64,000 nucleotides of DNA, from positions 5,792,001-5,856,000 of the forward strand of contig OZ253462.1 of assembly GCA_965261395.1 (NCBI GenBank). The letters run 5' to 3'. Shown here one piece after another: positions 31,903 through 42,201 of the stretch; the first letter of the stretch is position 1; each line of letters starts with the position of its first letter. The notes beneath the pieces are model-generated. The model did no database searches, was not told where the DNA came from, and worked only from the letters and a program-made list of their open reading frames with translations. The DNA comes from Candidatus Latescibacterota bacterium (GTDB lineage: Bacteria > Latescibacterota > UBA2968 > UBA8231). The position numbers and the translations under genes were made by a program.

Positions 31903-32313
31903 TCAAGGCGCGTCGAGCAGCGTGTAGTCGAGGTCTGCGACGTGGCGATAGTCGCTATCGAAGGTCAACAGGCACCCGCGGCACTCCATCGTCGCTGCTG
32001 CGATCCACACATCGTTCATAGGGATTGGTGTGCCGGCTCGACGCAACGCCACGAAGATTCGGGAATAGTGCCGAACGGTTTCGGAAGTGACGTCCAACAC
32101 GCTGACGAAAGGCTCATCGAGGAAGTCGGCGAGGGCGTGGCGATTCTCCTGCACACGGCTCCCCAACTCGAATCCCGCTTCAATCTCTCCGAGCACTGTC
32201 ACCGGCATGATGACTACCGGTGCATCCGCCACATAGTCGATCACTTGAGGATGTCCGGTACGCAGGTGCGAGTACGCGCTGGTATCGAGGACAAGTCGGT
32301 CAGTCGAGTTCAC
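31903..32313 (-). CDS. vapC: VapC PIN-domain toxin
   Basis: VLDTSAY, GEI..G, NDVWIAA, TFDSDY. Confidence 0.9.
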   Translation of the reverse strand: MNSTDRLVLDTSAYSHLRTGHPQVIDYVADAPVVIMPVTVLGEIEAGFELGSRVQENRHALADFLDEPFVSVLDVTSETVRHYSRIFVALRRAGTPIPMNDVWIAAATMECRGCLLTFDSDYRHVADLDYTLLDAP

Positions 32314-32555
32314 TGCCAGTACCGTTCATCGACGACTCGCTGCGCACGTAGCGCATCGGTAAACTCCGAGAGGTCGTCAGCCGTCCATGTGACGTATCGG
32401 CGCAGGCGGTCGCGACGCGCATCCAACCCGACCGCGTCTTGCAGGAGGCGCAGCACGGTGCTGTTCAGGCTCTCACCGCGTTCCGCGCTGACGGCGCGAA
32501 GCCGCCGCGAGAGTTCGGGATCGACATTGCGAAGGGTAATCTGAGTAGCAGGCAT
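32310..32555 (-). CDS. Ribbon-helix-helix antitoxin (FitA/VapB-like)
   Basis: QITLRNVD...GESLN; 4-bp overlap with vapC. Confidence 0.82.
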   Translation of the reverse strand: MPATQITLRNVDPELSRRLRAVSAERGESLNSTVLRLLQDAVGLDARRDRLRRYVTWTADDLSEFTDALRAQRVVDERYWQ

Positions 32556-32748
32556 GACATCATGAATCTACTGTCATGCCTGCACCGCGTCAATCCCGAC
32601 AGACGGCGTGGCGAAGACGCGGGTATCAGTTTTCTCGGCCGGAAGTCATGCTCATTCTACTAAGGAGCCTATTTTTTATTTGAAGGCTGCATGGAAGAGC
32701 GAATACGGATTCATTCCACAACGTCCCGATTTGCATAGGAGATATGTG

Positions 32749-33099
32749 ATGATCGTTGGCGACAATCCTATAAAAAATCCCGAAGATGATGCTATCGGTA
32801 GAATTTCTACCGCTCAAAATTTTGCTCAGCATGTACTCGCCCTTGATACCAAGGAGGGGGTTGTAGTCGGCGTCCTTGGCCCTTGGGGTTCTGGAAAGAC
32901 GTCCTTTATCAATCTTGCCCGGAATGAGTTTGAGAAGGCCGAAGTTCCCATACTCGACTTTAATCCGTGGATGTTCAGTGGTGCGGCGCAACTCGTCGAG
33001 TCGTTTTTTATCGAACTCGCCGCCCAACTGAAGATTCGTCGTGGCCTTGCCGAAATAGGCGAAAACTTTGAGGCGTATGGAGAACTATTCTCCGGCTTA
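32749..33099 (+). pseudogene. KAP-family P-loop NTPase, N-terminal fragment truncated by IS630
   Basis: DNPI...DAIGR, GVLGPWGSGKTS and FNPWMFS motifs; ends at the TA insertion site. Confidence 0.85.
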
Positions 33100-34018
33100 T
33101 TGACCTCTGCATTTTTAAAGGAATAGTTATATTCATTTATATGCGACCTAAAGGTAGTGCCGATCGGCTGGAATATCGTCGTCAATGGGCGGCTCAGTTG
33201 CTTGATGCCGGCAAAGGCGTCAACGAAGTAGCTCGTCTGGTCCAAGTCTCCCCTTCCTCGGTGTCTCGTTGGAAGGCGATGAAAGCGCAAGCCGGCGAGG
33301 AGGGGCTCAAAGCCAAACCGCATCCGGGTCGGGGCTGTCAGTTGAGTCCCCAAGACAAGGATCAGTTGAAACAGCTTCTGCTCCAAGGCCCCCAGGCGGC
33401 TGGCTTTGATAGCGCTGTGGACCTGTCGGCGTGTCGCGCAGGTGATGGCCCAAACGTTTGGGGTGTCCTATCATCCCGATCACGTGGGTCGTCTGCTGCA
33501 TGGGTTGGGTTTTTCATGCCAGTATCCCCAGCACCGGGCGCGCGAACGGGAGGAGGAGGCCATCCGCCAATGGCGCTTAGTGGAGTGGCCGCGGATTAAA
33601 AAAAAGCCCGGCACCAAGGGGCGACCATCGCCTTGATGGATCAGAGGGGCTTCATGCTGCAACCCACCCGTCGTAGGACGTGGGCTTTGTCGGGTCACAC
33701 GCCCATACACAAGGTGTGGGATCGCCATGATCGCTTGTCGGTTCAGGCCGCCGTTACCTTGCCGCCTCGGCGCCAGCGGTTGGGCGTTTATTTCCGAATG
33801 TATGAGCATAATATTGACCGGCAGGATGTGGTATCCTTTGTCGGTCCTCTGCGGCGTATGATACGGCGCAAGGTCGTGCTCATTTTGGATCGGTGGAGTG
33901 TGCATCGCGCCGCGGTGGCGGTATTGCACAAAAGGTATCCGGATCGACTCACCATCGAATGGTTACCCGCCTATGCACCCGAATTGAATCCGGCTGAACA
34001 GGTCTGGAATCATACTAA
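33100..34018 (+). mobile_element. IS630-family element, frameshifted transposase, right end lost
   Basis: HTH N-terminus; LPAYAPELNPAEQVW DDE motif; starts after TA; cut by IS5. Confidence 0.88.
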
Positions 34019-34919
34019 GAGTTCCTAACAAAACTCTTTGAGGTGGTTCCAACAGATGAGTATACATCCGATGTCGAGGAAGGCCTCATGGATTTCGGCT
34101 CGCCGCTCCCAGCGCACTCGTAACCGCCGAAACTGATGCAACCACGCCAACGTCCGTTCCACCACCCACCGATAGACGCCCAAGCCGCTGCCGTGGGCTT
34201 GTCCCCGCCGCGCCAACACCGCGCCGATGCCCCGCTTTTGCAAGGCGCGCCGATGCGCTTGCGAATCATAGGCCCGGTCGCCTTGCACCTGATCGGGGCG
34301 ACGACGCGGTCGGCCGACTCGACCGGCCACCGCAGGGATGCGATCCACCAACGGCAACAACTGCGTCACATCATGCCGATGCGCCCCCGTCACGCTGGCG
34401 GCCAACGGGACCCCCTGTGCATCGGTGATTACATGATGTTTGCTGCCCGGTTTGCCCCGATCGGTCGGATTGGGACCGGGGTGCGCCCCCCCCCAACCGC
34501 CCGCACCGAGGCACTATCGATCACCGCCCGAGACCCGTCGATCCGGTCGGCCGCCCGTAGTTGGTTCAACAGAATATGGTGGACGCGCTTCCAGACCCCG
34601 GCTTGCTGCCAAGCCCGCCGCCGACGCCAGCAGGTCATCCCCGAGCCGCACCCCAACTCTTGCGGCAAATACTCCCAAGGGATGCCCGTCTTGAGCACAA
34701 AGACCAGGCCGGTCAGCACCCGACGATTATCCAGCGGGGGCCGACCGCCTTTGGGCTTGGCTACATCGGGGGGTAAAACCGGTTCAATGAGTTCCCATAA
34801 CGCATCGTCGAGTACGGGCTGGGCCATGAACAAACCTCCATACCAAGGGAGTAGCATCAATACCGAACAAATGAATATAGATCAGCCTAAACGACATAAA
34901 AAGGGTTTGTTAGAGACTC
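34019..34919 (-). mobile_element. IS5-family element with two-frame transposase
   Basis: TIR GAGTTCCTAACAAA/GAGTCTCTAACAAA, TAA on both sides; GIPWEYLP, IDSASV, GDRAYD, RWVVERT; frame change near the G-run at ~34490. Confidence 0.9.
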
Positions 34920-34920
34920 T

Positions 34921-35613
34921 AAGGCTCCGAAGCCTCATATAATTCTTTCATCACTGCGCCCTCCAGGGCGTCGTGCTTTCACTTGTGCTCATGAACTCGG
35001 CCATCATAGCTATGGCGACGGTACGCGTATAGACGAGTTGGTTAAAGAAAGGGAAGACCCCCAGTTTGACCATAGCGAGTTCGCCGCCGATTGCTTTGCA
35101 GGTGCTCTCCTGATGCCCAAGATGGCTGTCGAGCGGGCCTTTGCGCTCCGTAAGTGGTCGATCAGTGAGTGTACACCGGACCAAGTCTATATGGTTTCCA
35201 ACTACTTCGGAGTCGGCTACACAACATTGATACACCACTTGAGAAACGCTCTCTTACTACTCCCAGGTCCCCAGGCTGAAAAACTCTTGAAAGTTCCGCC
35301 ACGGCGAGCACAAGCTTTAAGCCTCGGATGGGAGACTTCGGAAACAGTCTGGATTGCCGACGAGTATTGGACAGGAAGACCTATAGATGTTGAGGTCGGC
35401 GATCTCATCTTTGTACTTGGGCGGCCTCGTCTGGAAGGGTGTTGTGTCGAGCATGTAGCAGATAGGGATGGGGGCAGACTGATCTGCGCCCGGCAGCCCG
35501 GAATCGGCAGGCTTGAGGACAGTTCTGGTTGGTCAGCCTTCATTAGAATATCCAAGCGAGAATTCATCGGGCGAAGCCTCTTCCGACATCAGGAGGAGGT
35601 GGATGATGAGTAG
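34921..35613 (+). pseudogene. ImmA/IrrE (M78) zinc metallopeptidase, N-terminus removed at the IS5 junction
   Basis: Frame open from the IS end: GRRAFTCAHELGHH...EFAADCFAGALLMP. Confidence 0.85.
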
Positions 35614-36418
35614 TCCCTTGATCATCGTGGAGGACAACATCTCGGTGGCATGGGGCAAAGCCTTCCTGAAAGTCTTTCACGCTCGCGAGATTACCCCGCT
35701 GGTAGTGGAGATCAATAGCTTGGACAATCCGGAGTCTCCTGAGATCCCGTCTATCCGAAACGCTCTTGATGCCGCCTTGGCTAAGGATGGGAAAGGGCTA
35801 TGTTGCCATCAGGTGGCGAACACTATTTTCCCGATCTCCCTGTGGAACTCTAAGGCCGACAGACATAACCTGTACAAAAGGTATCTGAAGATCTTCCCTC
35901 GTATTCAGAAGTACCTCAGCAATCGAAATGGGGTATACTTCCAGCGCTTCATTTTATTTGGTCATGATGGCAACATGCAAGATGGGGTAAACCAACTGGA
36001 GCACATCATCCAGACGTGGAACGGCGGCAACCACCGCAGGTCCGCTTTACAAGCTGCTGCCTTTGACCCACACGTGGATCACACTCACCAACGTCAACGG
36101 GGATTCCCCTGTCTACAGCAGGTTGCGTTCGCGCCCCTAGGCAGTGATGGCCTGACCGTGACTGGCTTCTACGCCACGCAGTACATATTTGAACGTGCCT
36201 ACGGCAACTATTTAGGTCTTTGCCGTCTAGGGCGATTTATGGCCCATGAAATGGGACTGAGATTGGATAAAGTCACCTGTATAGCAACTCCCGCAATCCG
36301 GTCTAACCCGAAGAAGAAGAAGGCAGATTTGAAGGACCTTGCTCAACAAGTCGAAGTAGCCTTGGCAGGCTTTGCAGATGGAGCCGATTCCAGCATTGAT
36401 GAGGGATCTTATGCTTGA
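35606..36418 (+). CDS. Divergent thymidylate synthase-like protein
   Basis: NQLEHII, GFPCLQQ (catalytic Cys position), AYGNYLGL; RSxD replaced by YATQ; AGGAGGAGG RBS. Confidence 0.7.
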   Translation: MSSPLIIVEDNISVAWGKAFLKVFHAREITPLVVEINSLDNPESPEIPSIRNALDAALAKDGKGLCCHQVANTIFPISLWNSKADRHNLYKRYLKIFPRIQKYLSNRNGVYFQRFILFGHDGNMQDGVNQLEHIIQTWNGGNHRRSALQAAAFDPHVDHTHQRQRGFPCLQQVAFAPLGSDGLTVTGFYATQYIFERAYGNYLGLCRLGRFMAHEMGLRLDKVTCIATPAIRSNPKKKKADLKDLAQQVEVALAGFADGADSSIDEGSYA

Positions 36419-38108
36419 CCATTCCAGTCCTGGCCAAATAATCGTATTCGAGGGACCTGATGGTGTAGGGAAGTCCACGCTTTCTCAGGCCCTTGTCAAG
36501 AAGCTGACAGATATCGGTCTGCCCTGTGAGTACTTGACGTTTCCAGGTAAGGAAGCAGGGACCATAGGTCGCCTAGTTTATGACCTCCACCATGATCCCG
36601 AAGCGTTTGGCTTGGGGAAGGTCTCTGCCACTAGCCTCCAAACCCTACATATAGCTGCTCACTTGGATGTGATAGAGCAGCGTATCCAGCCGGCACTTAA
36701 TGAAGGACAGTGGGTGGTACTTGACCGGTTCTGGTGGTCTACGTGGGTTTACGGGCGGGCGTCCGCCGTGGACAGGACTATGTTGGATGCTATGATTCAG
36801 GTGGAGCGTCTTCAGTGGGATGGTACCAAGCCCGCTGTCGTCTTCCTGATTGATCGTTCTAGTCATCTACTCAAAGATGATGATCGAGCCAAACTACGCG
36901 AGGGATACCAGATCCTGTTCGAAAGGGAACAGGACCAGTACCCAGTCCGTTTGATCCAGAACGACACGTCAGTGGACGAATCCCTGAGCCAACTACTAGA
37001 GGTTCTTCAAGACCTCGTCCTTCAGGTGCAGGATAGAGCTTCTACAGAACAGACTGCCAACTCAAAGAAAAAGGTGGAGCAGCTACCTCTTTTCCTTCCA
37101 CACGAGAAGCCTCGCTCTGTCTTCACGAGACTATCTCCTGCCCAGCCGACTGTGGTGTATGACAGTTACTGGCGGTTCGCTGCGGAACGACAAGAGGTGT
37201 TTTTTCGTAAGCTATCGGGGCTTCCCGATCCTTGGACGGCTGATCGCATCCTCACCCGGTATAAGTTTACTAATGCGTACCGCGCATCAGATCGCGTCAG
37301 CCAGTACCTAATCAGGCATGTCATCTATGAGGGGGATGATAGCCCAGAAGAGGTGTTTTTTCGTACCATTCTTTTTAAGCTTTTCAATAAGATCGAAACG
37401 TGGAAGATGCTAAATGCCAAGCTGGGAACGGTCAGCTATGCTGATTACTCCTTCTCGAAATACGACCAAGTACTGGCTGAAGCTCTCTCATCCGGCACTC
37501 GGATCTATTCGGCAGCCTATATCATGCCGTCGGGCAAGACCTCGTTCGGCCATAGTCAGAAACATCGTAATAACTTGTTGCTTCTTGAACAGATGATGGA
37601 GGATGAGACTCCCCGTAGGATCGCCGATGCACCTAGCATGCAGCAAGCCTTTGAGGTATTACGCTCGTATTCGACAGTCGGCAGCTTTCTTGCCTATCAA
37701 TTCGTCACAGACCTCAACTACAGCGAACTCACAAACTTCTCGGAGATGGAGTTCGTCATACCAGGTCCAGGCGCAATGGATGGTATTCACAAGTGTTTCG
37801 CTGATCTAGGGGGCCTTAATGAGAGGGACATCATTCAAGTAGTCACGGAGCGACAAGAGCAGGAGTTTGAAAGACTAGAGCTACAGTTTCGCTCTCTGTG
37901 GGGAAGGCACCTCCAGCTCATTGACTGCCAAAACCTCTTCTGTGAAGTGTCCAAATACGCTCGTTTAAGGCATCCAGAGGTTAAGGGAGTCAACAAGCGC
38001 ACTCAGATCAAGCAGGTCTATCGTCCTTCCAAGGGACGGCTAGATTACTGGTACCCTCCTAAGTGGGGTATCAACCATCTTATCCCGCAGCCTAGGAAAT
38101 TAGTTTGA
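36411..38108 (+). CDS. dTMP kinase-like domain fused to 5-hmdU DNA kinase (aGPT-PPlase1)-like helical domain
   Basis: EGPDGVGKST and DRF in N-half; YWRFAAERQ, PWT.D.IL..YKFTNAYR.SDRVSQY, YQFVTDLNY, GPGA.DG, DCQNLFCE..KY in C-half. Confidence 0.8.
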   Translation: MLDHSSPGQIIVFEGPDGVGKSTLSQALVKKLTDIGLPCEYLTFPGKEAGTIGRLVYDLHHDPEAFGLGKVSATSLQTLHIAAHLDVIEQRIQPALNEGQWVVLDRFWWSTWVYGRASAVDRTMLDAMIQVERLQWDGTKPAVVFLIDRSSHLLKDDDRAKLREGYQILFEREQDQYPVRLIQNDTSVDESLSQLLEVLQDLVLQVQDRASTEQTANSKKKVEQLPLFLPHEKPRSVFTRLSPAQPTVVYDSYWRFAAERQEVFFRKLSGLPDPWTADRILTRYKFTNAYRASDRVSQYLIRHVIYEGDDSPEEVFFRTILFKLFNKIETWKMLNAKLGTVSYADYSFSKYDQVLAEALSSGTRIYSAAYIMPSGKTSFGHSQKHRNNLLLLEQMMEDETPRRIADAPSMQQAFEVLRSYSTVGSFLAYQFVTDLNYSELTNFSEMEFVIPGPGAMDGIHKCFADLGGLNERDIIQVVTERQEQEFERLELQFRSLWGRHLQLIDCQNLFCEVSKYARLRHPEVKGVNKRTQIKQVYRPSKGRLDYWYPPKWGINHLIPQPRKLV

Positions 38109-39124
38109 TCCGTGTTTTTTCGGGACCAACCGCCGATCACGTGTGGCAGCAGATGGCAGATGCCTTCCGACAATCGGACGGCATCTGTAGCCAAAAGGGT
38201 AGAGGTGGCCCAACAAAGGAGATTCTCCATGCGGCCATATCAATCGAAGACCCTAGGCAACGCTGGGTGGTATCTCGGAAGCCATCTATAAATGTGGCCT
38301 TTGCACTGGCAGAGGTCGTATGGATCATAAACGGAAGGCGTGACCTGAAGTTCCTTGAGTTCTGGAACCAAGCCCTTCCCCGTTTTGTTGGGCCAGGGCC
38401 AGAGCTTCATGGAGCCTATGGGCATCGGCTCCGTGTTCACCTAGGCTTAGACCAGTTGAAACGGGCCTACGAGGCACTGCGACAGGATCCTGATACCAGA
38501 CAAGCGGTGCTACAGATTTGGGACTCTAGCATTGACCTACCTCGGTCTGACGGGTCACCAGTGGATCAGGACATTCCCTGCAATATCTTCTCATTGCTCA
38601 AGGTGCGTAATGGGAAATTGGAGTGGACGCAGATCATACGAAGCAACGACTTGTTTCTTGGAGTGCCTTACAACTTTGTCCAATTCACATGCCTTCAGGA
38701 GATAATAGCGGGGTGGCTGGGTATTGAGTGCGGCTCGTATAACCAGATCAGCGATAGCCTGCATCTCTATGACCGAAATATGGAGGAGGTACTCAACTCG
38801 ATGCGATCGTCAGACCTATCTTCCAATCCAGATTCTCTTGCTTTGCCATGGGAGGAATCAGAACAGGCATTTAGGGGGATGGAACATCGAATCGAGCGGA
38901 TGGTTAAGCCAGAGCTGTGTCCGGATGAACTTGAAGAGTTGTCTAAATGGGACACGGCACCAAAGGCTTACCAGAATATACTGGCTGTCCTTGTCGCTAG
39001 GGCACTACACCGACATGGTCACAGGGAAACAGCAAAGGCGGTCATGTCTTCCTGCACGAACCCTGTTTATCACGAACTTTGGTCACAGCGGTTTCTCAAC
39101 GAGACCAGGCGAAATAAAAAATAA
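38105..39124 (+). CDS. Thymidylate synthase/dUMP hydroxymethylase-family protein
   Basis: GAYGHR, DTRQAV, DIPCN, RSNDLFLGVPYN, SLHLY; TTGA overlap with upstream stop. Confidence 0.85.
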   Translation: MIRVFSGPTADHVWQQMADAFRQSDGICSQKGRGGPTKEILHAAISIEDPRQRWVVSRKPSINVAFALAEVVWIINGRRDLKFLEFWNQALPRFVGPGPELHGAYGHRLRVHLGLDQLKRAYEALRQDPDTRQAVLQIWDSSIDLPRSDGSPVDQDIPCNIFSLLKVRNGKLEWTQIIRSNDLFLGVPYNFVQFTCLQEIIAGWLGIECGSYNQISDSLHLYDRNMEEVLNSMRSSDLSSNPDSLALPWEESEQAFRGMEHRIERMVKPELCPDELEELSKWDTAPKAYQNILAVLVARALHRHGHRETAKAVMSSCTNPVYHELWSQRFLNETRRNKK

Positions 39125-39215
39125 ACTACCCCGCCGCAAGCAGCGGGGTATTAGCGGGAACTACTTGACGGCCTACGCCGCAAGCGGCGGGGTATTAGAC
39201 CCGAATGAGAATAAA
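39123..39215. repeat. Paired GC-rich hairpins (REP-like element)
   Basis: TACCCCGCCGCAAGCAGCGGGGTA and CGCCGCAAGCGGCGGGGTATTAG. Confidence 0.65.
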
Positions 39216-39219
39216 AAAT

Positions 39220-39459
39220 ATGAAATCTCTGACTATCCACATGGACGATACCTTGGCCCAACTCATACGCAAGAAAGCCGCCGCCGAGGGAAAAAGTCTA
39301 AACAAGACTATAAACGGTGTGCTGAAAGAGGCCTTGGGTCTGCAGCCGACGAATCACCGAGCTGATTTTTTGGATCAGTGCGGCGTGTGGAGCACCGAGG
39401 AACGGACGGCATTCGACTCCTTGACTCGCCGCCAAGTAGATACTGAGGACTGGCAGTGA
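39220..39459 (+). CDS. Ribbon-helix-helix antitoxin, homologous to 32310-32555
   Basis: MKSLTIH...GKSLN...WS.E...VDTEDWQ. Confidence 0.78.
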   Translation: MKSLTIHMDDTLAQLIRKKAAAEGKSLNKTINGVLKEALGLQPTNHRADFLDQCGVWSTEERTAFDSLTRRQVDTEDWQ

Positions 39460-39548
39460 AGGTCCTGTTGGATACCAATGCGTTCAACGCGTCAGTAATC
39501 CGCCTGTGGGAACCCCGTTCTTCCGAGTTGAGCCTCGGCCTCGTCTAA
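39456..39548 (+). pseudogene. vapC remnant (first ~9 codons only)
   Basis: GTGA overlap, then KVLLDTNA followed by unrelated sequence. Confidence 0.7.
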
Positions 39549-40312: not shown

Positions 40313-40597
40313 GGTGGCGCTCCCTTCGGCTTTGTTCAGGGCAAGCTCTCAATTTTTCGGTCGCTCTGTGAAATGAACTCGTATTCGACCGTATCAGTTT
40401 AACTAACTTCATCACAAAATGACAGTCAATGCGATCTATCCGCGCCTTGACTTATATACCGTGCTGCCCAAGATGCGCATCTTGCGCGAGAAGGGTTTTG
40501 ATCTCTTAGCCAGCAGGCTAGGCCGATCTCTACAACTCGTGGAATATTCTAGAAGCCGTATCCTCTAGATACCTATGCCGCTTCTGAAGTTTTCTCA

Positions 40598-41529
40598 GAA
40601 GCCGTCTGAAAACTATATTTTTTCTATTTGATCCGTTTGAGCAGCAAGTGGATCATAGCAATCTGGATCAAGGCTTCGCTATGGTGGGTCAACACCTCAT
40701 AATCTCGGGCATGTCGGCGAAAATTCATCAACCACGCAAACGTGCGCTCGACGACCCAACGGCGTGGTAACACCTCAAAGCCGGGGCCTTGTTTGGCGAC
40801 GACTTCCAAGTCTATTTTGTGCGTCTTTTTTACGTTAGCCACCCACGTTCGGATCGGATCGCCTCGATAGCCGCCATCGCCCCACAGTTTGCGTAACCGG
40901 GCTACGCCGGAGGCCCCCAAGCGGGTCAACACCTGCTTGAGGCCGTCCCGATCCTCTACATCGGCGGCGGTGACCACCACCTGTCTAAGCAAGCCCGAGG
41001 TGTCGACCAACAGATGACGCTTGCGCCCCTTGACCTTTTTTCCGGCGTCATAACCGGTTGTTTTACCATGGGTTGCCGTCTTGATCGTCTGACTATCGAC
41101 TACGCCAGCCGACGGCGTTGGAGCCCGTCCGTTGAGGCGGCGTTCCCGCTGGGTGAGTCGATCCAATACCTGCGGCCAGACCCCTTGTAGACTCCAGCGA
41201 CGAAAGTAATCATACACCGTTTTCCACGGTCCAAAACAAGAAGGCAACAAAGCCCAAGGACAACCGGTCTTGGTCAGATACAAAAGGCCGTTGACGATCT
41301 GGCGTCGATCCCGCGGTGGCCGACCCGGACCGTTCGGCTGCCATGTCGAAGCCGGCAGCAACGGTTCGATCCGACGCCATTGCACATCGGTTACATCGGT
41401 GGCATATTGCCTACTAGGCGTACTCATCATACGAGCCTTTCTGTTCAGATTTTGTCGCGAAACCTGAATATGGCTCGATGAGTACGCCGATTCAAATACC
41501 GGCTACAGCAAGGGTTTTCAGACGGCTTC
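40598..41529 (-). mobile_element. Intact IS5-family element (transposase 40624-41430)
   Basis: 16-bp TIR GAAGCCGTCTGAAAAC, TCA duplication; VDSQT, KGRKRH, DGGY, RWVVERTF. Confidence 0.95.
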
Positions 41530-41822
41530 TCAAGAGGAACGAAATGGAGTTCGATGCGCTGGTTCAATGCAAGGGCAATGCGCTGGAGCATGGACAGCGA
41601 ATGTCCTTCGTAATCGGCATCTTCCAAGCGTGTGATCACTGGTTGCTTGGTGCCGATTCGCTCGGCCAATTCGGCTTGAGTTAGCCCCGCCACCGTCCGC
41701 GCTTCGTAGATCAAACGGGCCACTTCTGCGTTAAGAGTTTCCTCGGCAATCAGTTGCTGCATTTCCCGATCGTCGCCCGTCATCTGGTCGAGAATCTGGG
41801 TTGCATCTCGCGTCTTAGGCAT
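41445..41822 (-). CDS. XRE HTH antitoxin whose native C-terminus was displaced by IS5
   Basis: GLTQAELAERIGTKQPVITRLE; removing the IS restores ...FVPLEKTSEAA*. Confidence 0.85.
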   Translation of the reverse strand: MPKTRDATQILDQMTGDDREMQQLIAEETLNAEVARLIYEARTVAGLTQAELAERIGTKQPVITRLEDADYEGHSLSMLQRIALALNQRIELHFVPLEKPSENPCCSRYLNRRTHRAIFRFRDKI

Positions 41823-42201
41823 GAGAAATATTCTCCTCGTAGGTGTGCTTCTCCGGGTCTTTCAGAAAAGCTTTTTTCCGTTTGATCGCCCGCATCAGGT
41901 CCGCTTGGGAAATCGCGTCTTCTTTGACCAGCCCATGAGTCAAGATCGCTATGTTCTGACCATGAAAGAAATAGAGAATGCGATAGTTGATCCGACCGCG
42001 GCGGATGCGCAGTTCGTAGATGTCTTCTTCCAGATAGTCAGCCAGTGGACGACGAAGTTCGTGGCCGAGTTGGGCCAGCAGGCGGATGCGTGCGATGCAC
42101 TTGGCATAAACCCGTTTGTCTGTTCGCCGCAATTCCTGTAACCAACTTCGCACTGGAATATCTCGTTCATCCTGGAAGAAGAATACCTGGGTAGCGGGCA
42201 T
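41815..42201 (-). CDS. RelE/ParE (HigB/Gp49-like) toxin
   Basis: LRRP.ADYL...IYELR...YRILYFF...LTHG..K; toxin-first order. Confidence 0.85.
   Translation of the reverse strand: MPATQVFFFQDERDIPVRSWLQELRRTDKRVYAKCIARIRLLAQLGHELRRPLADYLEEDIYELRIRRGRINYRILYFFHGQNIAILTHGLVKEDAISQADLMRAIKRKKAFLKDPEKHTYEENISHA

Follow-up and report, generated by a model that had tools for sequence, protein, structure and literature searches.

The stretch of DNA analysed here (the window) comprises 64,000 nucleotides of Candidatus Latescibacterota bacterium (assembly GCA_965261395.1, contig OZ253462.1, positions 5,792,001 to 5,856,000). Its segment 34921-39124 carries four plus-strand reading frames with overlapping ends, as had been described in an initial annotation made from the letters alone; these frames are termed A', B, C and D. 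They form the downstream end (A'-B-C-D) of an operon of six genes, X-H-A-B-C-D, which is horizontally mobile and in which X is likely to encode an acyl carrier protein (ACP)-like protein, H an XRE repressor, A an ImmA/IrrE metallopeptidase, B and D homologues of thymidylate synthase (TS) and C a P-loop kinase with an additional helical domain. We read the operon, with a probability of roughly 0.6, as a DNA-damage-inducible anti-phage cassette for the modification of pyrimidines at C5, which is disabled or deregulated in this genome.

The A' frame ends with TAG at 35611-35613 and overlaps by 11 nt with B, whose ATG at 35603 is immediately preceded on its 5' side by GGAGGAGG. The stop codon of B (TGA, 36416-36418) and the start codon of C (ATG, 36411) give an overlap of 8 nt, and between C (stop TGA, 38106-38108) and D (start TTG, 38105) the overlap is TTGA. 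The ATG used for C is the same one that its homologues use. A lower G+C content than that of the flanking core genes had been remarked on earlier, and it was found again: 0.50-0.53 at 35-39 kb compared with 0.60-0.63 at 26.5-32 kb, the core genes with the latter values lying to the left of the operon fragment. The coordinates of the features are collected in Table 1.

Table 1 Features at and around the operon fragment. Positions are those of the window, except for the DCD-like (dCTP-deaminase-like) insertions, which lie in four homologous loci
Feature	Position	Strand	Basis
IS630-type transposase remnant	33141..34015	+	Pfam HTH_28/HTH_32, DDE_3 3.4e-22
IS4/5-family insertion sequence (IS), 908 bp	34016..34923	-	Pfam DUF4096 3.5e-26, DDE_Tnp_1 7.9e-13
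A', 3' fragment of ImmA/IrrE (CapP-like) metallopeptidase gene	34921..35613	+	translation, tblastn, alignment
B, divergent TS-fold protein, 271 aa	35603..36418	+	TIGR03283, AF2 model, Foldseek
C, P-loop kinase domain + PF18723 HMUDK_hel, 565 aa	36411..38108	+	Pfam
D, TS-family enzyme, 339 aa	38105..39124	+	Pfam PF00303
Pair of G+C-rich palindromic repeats, 23-nt unit x2, multi-copy element	39127..39198		repeat search
DCD-like insertions	L041:7051-7971, L039:7237-7992, L075:7147-7977, L059:7181-7993		PF22769

Enzymes encoded by B, C and D

The C-terminal domain of C is a strong member of the helical family of 5-hydroxymethyldeoxyuridine (5-hmdU) DNA kinases (PF18723; E = 1.1e-111, 373 bits, profile positions 2-281 of 281). 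The match covers residues 261-539 of a domain that extends over approximately 245-560, and a linker joins it to a P-loop domain at about 8-195, which matches Thymidylate_kin (PF02223; 2.1e-17, residues 26-189). When C was used as a phmmer query against the PDB, thymidylate kinases alone were returned, over residues 1-208, and the kinase domain also matched the PADLOC family PDC-M51B (1.7e-13). Table 1 of Lee et al. 2021 (PMC8989533) includes gp186 of phage SP10 among the 5-hmdU DNA kinases; this protein comprises 637 aa and matches PF18748 (2.8e-23) followed by PF18723 (2.4e-44). In the initial annotation, C was a fusion of a dTMP kinase with a 5-hmdU DNA kinase domain. Both domain matches stand, but with its gp186-like two-part build C is, by analogy, more plausibly a single enzyme. 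Within the gene, 18 nt are repeated exactly and in direct orientation (37192-37209 and 37348-37365), encoding the two EVFFR peptides (QEVFFRK and EEVFFRT) of the helical domain; it may be an internal duplication or due to chance.

D belongs to the TS family (PF00303, Thymidylat_synt; 5.1e-23, 82 bits against a cut-off of 24.3). The catalytic motifs and the base-selecting Asn that had been ascribed to it were confirmed in an alignment of 26 homologues, in which P158-C159 and R179-S180-N181-D182 do not vary and the Asn of GVPYN (N190) hardly does. The best match of D in the PDB is the CMP 5-hydroxymethylase MilA (5b6d_A; 8e-26, residues 16-311), in which an Asp aligns with the Asn of GVPYN. Among the proteins compared, gp188 of phage SP10 is the closest to D (39% identity, E = 9e-40), as against 22% identity for the ThyA of the genome itself. 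From these relationships, D is probably a (d)UMP C5-hydroxymethylase.

B was claimed to be a second TS homologue, and its predicted fold bears this out. The AF2 model (pLDDT 90.4) matched 393 PDB chains at E <= 0.001 in Foldseek; the best was MilA (5jnh_A, E = 6e-9, TMq 0.59), the MilA and TS matches ranged from 6e-9 to 3e-7, and a phage dCMP hydroxylase was also among the best. By sequence, B gave no Pfam match at E <= 0.01 and matched the archaeal TS model TIGR03283 at 1.7e-9, which is below the cut-off of that model, and the ESM Atlas clusters that match it are named thymidylate synthase with scores of 0.95-0.98. The Cys of GFPCLQQ (C170), which is the catalytic nucleophile of the TS type, and the Asn of YGN (N202) are invariant in 28 sequences, while counterparts of TS R166 and D169 are absent and YATQY stands where D has IRSND. 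When the profiles of B and D were compared with hhalign, a probability of 4.4% and an E-value of 0.0093 were obtained, with the two P-C motifs aligned; B and D thus appear to be united by fold as modelled, and not by sequence alone. A predicted B-C complex scored 0.23 and 0.00 against a mark of 0.32, which is evidence neither for nor against an interaction.

The Pfam and NCBIfam matches to thymidylate synthase and dTMP kinase, and the name 'thymidylate kinase' that some homologues carry in JGI, would also suit a spare set of housekeeping enzymes for thymidylate metabolism, that is, an alternative ThyA and Tmk. This explanation is hardly credible, as a canonical ThyA is encoded elsewhere in the genome (1.6e-120), D and C lie far under the equivalog cut-offs and PF18723 was found in none of 40 relatives, 24 of them of the same genus. 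In an alignment with a solved Tmk, moreover, C has His in place of the Arg of AAR and nothing that corresponds to the Gln of AYQ; these are positions which we take to bind the acceptor.

The complete operon and its interruption in this genome

Relatives of C are widespread. At least 7902 proteins of similar length were found, many of them with a length of 565 aa and an identity of 60-93%, and the chromosomal contigs that carry them reach 4.3 Mb. In a set of 185,579 species genomes (one per species) 326 of 404 candidate stretches encode a relative of C. Gene order was examined in the best 80 loci, which are those most similar to the query C. These come from Chloroflexota, Thermodesulfobacteriota, Latescibacterota, Myxococcota, Hyphomicrobiaceae, Cyanobacteria, Planctomycetota, Elusimicrobia, Acidobacteriota, Verrucomicrobiota, Bacteroidota and others; the range of the operon includes Alphaproteobacteria, and plasmids as well. 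A conserved gene order had been named as a check on the initial annotation and was found: H-A-B-C-D occurs in 23 of the 80 loci, A-B-C in 38 and C-D in 46. The list of genes given at that stage was nevertheless incomplete, in that the ACP-like first gene X, the XRE repressor gene H and the MazG/MazG_C alternative to D were missing from it.

Several variants of the operon were observed. A same-strand gene with MazG and MazG_C domains (Pfam) follows C in place of D in 10 of the 38 A-B-C loci. Where C-D occurs without A-B, it is accompanied by a divergent fused HTH-ImmA gene (PADLOC RmrA, 3.6e-54) and a PIN gene, or by separate HTH and ImmA genes; the enzyme genes are associated with a switch, of the CapH/CapP type or of the fused RmrA type, in two arrangements independent of each other. 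DCD-like genes were found in 12 of the 80 loci, and in four loci a DCD-like protein (PF22769, 8.5e-13), whose C-terminal tail is hydrophobic and of low complexity, is encoded between B and C. Nmad2 was found in 30 loci, with small TIR-like open reading frames (ORFs) adjoining it in L009 and L077. B and C are fused in P0066 and P0085 (846 aa) and in L015 (823 aa), whereas some loci encode the kinase and the helical part of C as two proteins, and on plasmids the helical domain often stands alone.

The two loci with TIR-like ORFs are worth describing. In L009 (6075-15688; Dehalococcoidia), a PIN gene and a fused HTH-ImmA (RmrA-like) gene diverge from a series made up of C-D, a 165-aa ORF, two TIR-like ORFs and Nmad2, with a type I methyltransferase-like ORF after it. 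L077 (6749-11554) holds a related cassette without the helical domain, in which a stand-alone kinase is 58% identical to the N-terminal domain of C (PADLOC PDC-M51B, 1.4e-8). It is joined by two small TIR-like ORFs, Nmad2, a MazG-like gene (40% identity to the MazG/MazG_C query) and a 222-aa ORF, with an SNF2-type helicase ORF after them; the TIR-like and helicase labels were assigned by eye.

At the head of the operon, H and A are by sequence a CapH/CapP-like repressor-peptidase pair. In the homologous locus L005 (Latescibacterota), the repressor matches PADLOC capH (2.7e-11), and the full-length peptidase matches capP (4.4e-18) and Pfam Peptidase_M78 (3.4e-22). In CapH/CapP, single-stranded DNA, which arises from DNA damage, has been shown to activate the peptidase; the repressor is then cleaved and the immune operon linked to it is switched on. 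Gene X precedes this pair. A single X sequence gave no Pfam match at E <= 0.01; a profile of 15 X proteins matched acyl carrier proteins in the PDB (best 1e-5), with the invariant Ser43 falling on the Ser of the D-S-L motif, and the top ESM Atlas cluster carries PF00550 on 23% of its members. On these profile matches, X is likely to be ACP-like. An X-like ORF was detected by tblastn in 22 of the 38 A-B-C loci and by eye, from the conserved Ser motif, in 12 of 14 further loci. An AcpS-like gene adjoins the operon in 9 of the 80 loci, and on an S. fredii plasmid (pSfreNXT3a) the gene next to it carries the annotation acpS.

In the window, the peptidase gene is split. The initial annotation identified an ImmA/IrrE peptidase, and the identity holds, with HELGH kept; the gene is, however, not intact but truncated at its 5' end, with no start codon at 34921. 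A' corresponds to residues 57-285 of the peptidase family and aligns from residue 56/57 of the 285-aa homologues onward (residues 56-285 of the L005 peptidase at 67% identity by tblastn); on its own it falls below the Pfam cut-off (18.4 bits against 22). The insertion sequence at 34016-34923 entered at codon 56/57. Its transposase is read in two frames, 34429-34860 and 34025-34405, and TAA stands at both flanks. When the whole 6.55-Mb genome was searched with full-length homologues, the missing head of the operon was found approximately 195 kb away on the opposite strand, at about G000:C1:5631866-5632724. It consists of gene X (53% identity to the L005 protein), the intact repressor gene H (an open frame of 117 aa, 75% identity) and codons 1-56 of the peptidase gene (75% identity), which adjoin a second copy of the insertion sequence (G000:C1:5630962-5631869; 908 bp, 100% identical to the copy in the window).

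The junctions read ...ATGTACTA-TAA-IS and IS-TAA-GGCTCCG..., and joining them gives one open frame of homologue length, which means that the IS inserted once and duplicated 3 bp (TAA). The remaining two flanks, at 34015 of the window and at the remote copy, rejoin in the same manner into one IS630-type transposase frame. The simplest account is that an IS first entered the peptidase gene and that recombination between two inverted IS copies then inverted about 195 kb. The present junction was also met in Logan contigs from two studies (X1 and X2), where a 4255-bp piece identical to 34894-39148 joins the IS end to A'-B-C-D; the reverse isomer would share the same four short junctions as the inverted arrangement. 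In X1, X2 and X8, the summed contig depth over the IS is several-fold above that over B-D. The break must be recent, since the two IS copies are identical over all 908 bp, and the same conclusion follows from B, C and D, which keep every residue that is invariant in their families.

Gating by the peptidase, as was proposed earlier, is a fair reading because the peptidase belongs to a CapH/CapP-like pair, but in this genome the gate is broken, the peptidase being split and the repressor and carrier genes lying about 195 kb away. No pair of an XRE gene directly followed by an intact M78 peptidase gene was found in the window, where the peptidase is without residues 1-56 and no repressor gene is present; intact homologous loci do have such a pair. 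No evidence was obtained for a promoter between the IS and B: two sigma-70-like sites were predicted in 34700-39500, both intragenic, compared with 3.9 +/- 2.2 in shuffled sequences. As B, C and D are cut off from promoter, repressor and peptidase, the local copy is most likely silent or deregulated. In one metatranscriptome run (X20), contigs were found only on the IS and on the repeat after D, the two longest IS contigs with 10 differences each; no contig fell on B-D, from which nothing follows. The window copy is a natural knock-out and is for this reason of limited value in itself, though it does document that an IS inserted recently and that 195 kb were inverted afterwards.

The surroundings hold further mobile and defence-type genes. 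The IS630-type remnant comprises an HTH ORF (33141-33599) and a DDE_3 ORF (33633-34028), and its 3' end was removed by the next IS. Upstream of it, a 172-aa ORF (32608-33126) codes for the N-terminal portion of a P-loop NTPase of the KAP family (Pfam 5.7e-17; PADLOC PifA 1.1e-25, profile positions 6-101 of 720); this ORF ends where the IS630-type element starts, making it a second defence-type gene broken by an IS. A second IS4/5-family element at 40597-41530 has perfect 17-nt inverted ends and a 268-aa transposase, and it differs in sequence from the IS at 34016-34923 (blastn within the window gave self-matches alone). Two gene pairs (PIN with FitA-like RHH, HTH_37 with Gp49-like) flank the island in the regions 31903-32555 (-), 39205-39459 (+) and 41445-42201 (-). 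Directly after D, an 84-aa ORF resembles the RHH antitoxin (35% over 34 aa, E = 2e-6), with no toxin gene adjoining. The pair of palindromic repeats, which likewise directly follows D, is terminator-like on the minus strand (39150-39127), and the X1 and X2 contigs break at 39148, where the summed depth rises several-fold, as for a dispersed REP-like repeat. The element is accessory, since PF18723 is absent from the 40 relatives mentioned above, its G+C content is below that of its flanks and its surroundings contain insertion sequences, the PIN/RHH and Gp49/HTH pairs and the PifA-like KAP fragment.

Such surroundings might suggest the remnant of a decaying prophage or integrative element with no present role, in which the HTH and ImmA proteins would be an immunity module and the TS and kinase genes would serve nucleotide metabolism. 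Prophages and integrative and conjugative elements are reportedly controlled by ImmR/ImmA-type pairs, and the local copy is IS-broken in a region full of IS elements. We regard this as improbable, because this compact operon is found again in many phyla and on plasmids, with no phage structural genes in the loci read, and because the retained invariant residues and the identical IS copies speak for a recent break.

Probable link to anti-phage defence and proposed function

Neighbourhoods of this kind are reportedly, and probably, those described by Iyer et al. in 2013 and Burroughs et al. in 2015. The initial annotation knew of no experimental function for them. This statement needs updating, as an E. 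coli system with TS, dNMP-kinase and 5-hmdU-kinase labels has a defence phenotype according to the DefensePredictor study (Science 2026; preprint January 2025; PMC13092281). In that study, predicted transcription units were cloned in E. coli MG1655 and tested with 24 phages, and a 5-hydroxymethyluracil kinase and a thymidylate synthase are listed among the domains newly validated in defence; the labels TS, dNMPk, 5hmdUk and NMAD are defined in the legend of its Fig. 3C (PMC13092281). The same source attributes the prediction of a defence role for aGPT-Pplase, MazG, MazG-C and NMAD to Burroughs et al. 2015, and the portions of its main text that could be consulted give no mutational analysis of the TS/dNMPk/5hmdUk systems (PMC13092281).

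Compared by domain labels alone, the E. coli system is likely, though not proven, to be the same as the present operon. The labels match the Pfam labels of C and D, and Nmad2 neighbours C-D in 30 of the 80 loci; the accessible text, in contrast to the operon, names no ImmA, ACP-like gene or second TS. Annotated homologues on plasmids adjoin a CBASS phospholipase, TIR genes and an ABC-three-component system. Among relatives of an 'Enterobacteriaceae' metagenome-assembled genome, PF18723 was found in 4 of 55 genomes, and tblastn against plasmids returned tmk genes in Klebsiella alone. Of the literature on mechanism, DefensePredictor was the one study found that deals with the bacterial system, and no relevant paper was found on PDC-M51, RmrA or PDC-M69. 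A Chem Sci paper of 2019 (PMC6457204), in which phosphorylation of 5hmU reportedly switches transcription off, is given no weight here.

The operon may then be pictured as follows. DNA damage or infection would derepress it through the CapH/CapP-like switch. D or B would hydroxymethylate dUMP, which in some variants DCD or MazG would supply, and C would then add a phosphate to the hydroxymethyl-pyrimidine, whether this is a nucleotide or part of DNA. Positions C6/C5 of that pyrimidine would be the target of B, which, perhaps together with holo-X, would process the product further. The products would be 5-hydroxymethyl and 5-phosphomethyl uracil species, and anti-phage defence would follow either from the starvation of dTTP synthesis or from the loading of replicating phage DNA with bulky, charged uracil derivatives. 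What the analysis shows is the identity of the genes, the order in which they are conserved, the kind of regulator and the split by the IS; the defensive role, all substrates and the mode of killing are inferred, and any particular chemical route is doubtful, far more so than the defensive role of the family as a whole.

A number of observations weigh against this picture. A blastn search with C-D against 5,426 E. coli genomes, aimed at a link to the validated E. coli system, gave no match. For enrichment near defence genes, which had been put forward as a check, no claim is made: no PADLOC family occurs in more than 3 of 139 flanking ORFs, and no strong known-defence signal was seen among them, the census covering the four ORFs of 200-650 aa nearest the core per locus in 36 of the 80 loci, without a control set. 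The operon contains no classical effector (nuclease, NADase or pore). The counts of gene order tilt towards close relatives, because the 80 loci are those most similar to the query. As to C, PF18748 (HMUDK_HMUD1) is not among its Pfam matches at E <= 0.01; since its kinase domain does not belong to this family of proven 5-hmdU DNA kinases, a kinase action on the base is proposed by analogy only. C also scores 56.7 bits against the dTMP kinase model TIGR00041, under the NCBIfam cut-off of 83.25, and its AF2 model, built from 13 sequences, has a pLDDT of 57.5 and a pTM of 0.38, with the helical domain mostly below 50. Finally, the carrier protein X has no role in a simple model of pool poisoning.

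The presence of X raises the further possibility, an unlikely one, that the full operon performs a carrier-protein-dependent chemistry at uracil C5 that is new to phages and cells, with steps by D, C, B and X. D would add a hydroxymethyl group and C would phosphorylate it, on the nucleotide or on DNA. The Cys of B would attack C6 and the phosphate would leave to give an exocyclic methylene, as with the unrelated phage amino-acid:DNA transferases; the phosphopantetheine thiol of X, or a group borne by X, would add to this methylene to form a protein-nucleotide or protein-DNA adduct. If this were true, the adduct could block phage DNA or signal infection to the CapP-like peptidase, and B would be a second, independently evolved answer to the transferase step.

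A different use of the same enzymes would be the hypermodification of self DNA, in which the mobile element or its host marks its own DNA with a thymidine derivative, to evade restriction or to tell self from non-self. The SP10 thymidine hypermodification cluster holds the closest characterised relatives of D and of the helical domain of C, one homologue is named 'putative DNA base hypermodification protein' by NCBI, and PF18723 proteins sit in phage modification clusters such as that of phage LuckyBarnes, with two glycosyltransferases and a TS. Such a pathway would be expected to continue with an amino acid:DNA transferase (ADDT), which the initial annotation had found lacking at the locus. 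Its absence extends to the whole 6.55-Mb genome (95.3% complete), with 0 matches to PF18724 (ADDT, formerly aGPT-Pplase2), and none was seen in the loci read. There is also no conserved restriction partner, and expression is placed under a damage-inducible CapH/CapP-type or RmrA-type switch rather than being constitutive. The replacement of D by a MazG/MazG_C pyrophosphohydrolase, in turn, points to the nucleotide pool and not to a fixed mark in DNA. Self-marking is therefore given little weight.

It is about equally unlikely that DNA is not the target at all and that D makes a hydroxymethyl-pyrimidine nucleotide which is processed, partly on X, into a nucleoside toxin or signal. This would agree with MilA being, among solved proteins, the nearest to D over almost all of its length as well as the best structural match of B, with the ACP-like X and its DSL Ser, with the AcpS-like genes adjoining in 9 of the 80 loci and on the S. 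fredii plasmid, and with the small TIR-like genes and Nmad2 in related loci. The operon has, however, no other conserved biosynthetic genes (glycosyl, peptidyl or export); D has Asn where MilA has Asp and is nearer to SP10 gp188 than to anything else compared, and PF18723 is otherwise known from enzymes that act on DNA.

The anti-phage cassette remains the preferred reading, and the anatomy of the operon yields testable hypotheses on its mechanism, through the ACP-like gene, the CapH/CapP-like gate, the B-C fusions, the exchange of D for MazG and the DCD and Nmad2 partners. Thymidine hypermodification in phages is known as an anti-restriction weapon; here, its first enzymes stand in a compact bacterial operon with an immune-type switch. 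A defence phenotype has been reported for the same domain labels without a mechanism, and the operon family is a worthwhile target precisely because the phenotype is reported while the mechanism is open.

Comparison with known systems

A close parallel is the front end of phage thymidine hypermodification (SP10 gp188/gp186; M6 gp54; ViI gp67/gp243), where a TS-family enzyme likewise adjoins a P-loop and PF18723 kinase; in SP10, the TS homologue gp188 lies two genes downstream of gp186. The two differ in the kinase domain, which is PF18748 in gp186 and the dTMP-kinase-like PF02223 in C. The operon has no ADDT/aGPT-Pplase2, pyridoxal phosphate (PLP) or radical-SAM partner. It is bacterial, chromosomal or plasmid-borne, and goes beyond the phage set by a carrier protein, another TS-fold protein and a switch made of repressor and peptidase. 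Phage matches to C are confined to its C-terminal half (538 of 50,697 records, with less than 80% of the query covered in every case). The closest phage relative of the helical domain is a stand-alone PF18723-type protein of 284 aa from Brevibacterium phage LuckyBarnes (L097, 822-4837), whose gene adjoins two annotated glycosyltransferases and a 517-aa 'thymidylate synthase'; these genes look like an undescribed pyrimidine glycosyl-modification cluster.

Among solved structures, MilA of the mildiomycin pathway (PDB 5b6d, 5jnh) comes nearest to D in sequence, the C-terminal extension included, and nearest to B in fold. D and MilA nevertheless differ at the base-selecting position, and genes of a mildiomycin-type pathway are not present with the operon.

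With respect to its regulation, the operon resembles the CapH/CapP operons (CBASS and others), ImmR/ImmA and DdrO/IrrE, the shared feature being an XRE repressor gene at the start of the operon with an M78 peptidase gene after it. In contrast to the CapH/CapP operons, an ACP-like gene precedes the pair and the cargo consists of nucleotide enzymes, and in the window the peptidase is split with its repressor 195 kb off. A further likeness is to defences that act on the nucleotide pool, such as dCTP deaminase, given that a DCD-like gene is found inside or beside the operon in 12 of the 80 loci and that a MazG-type pyrophosphohydrolase can replace D. The DCD and MazG genes are not in the window, and the core enzymes would modify nucleotides rather than simply destroy them.

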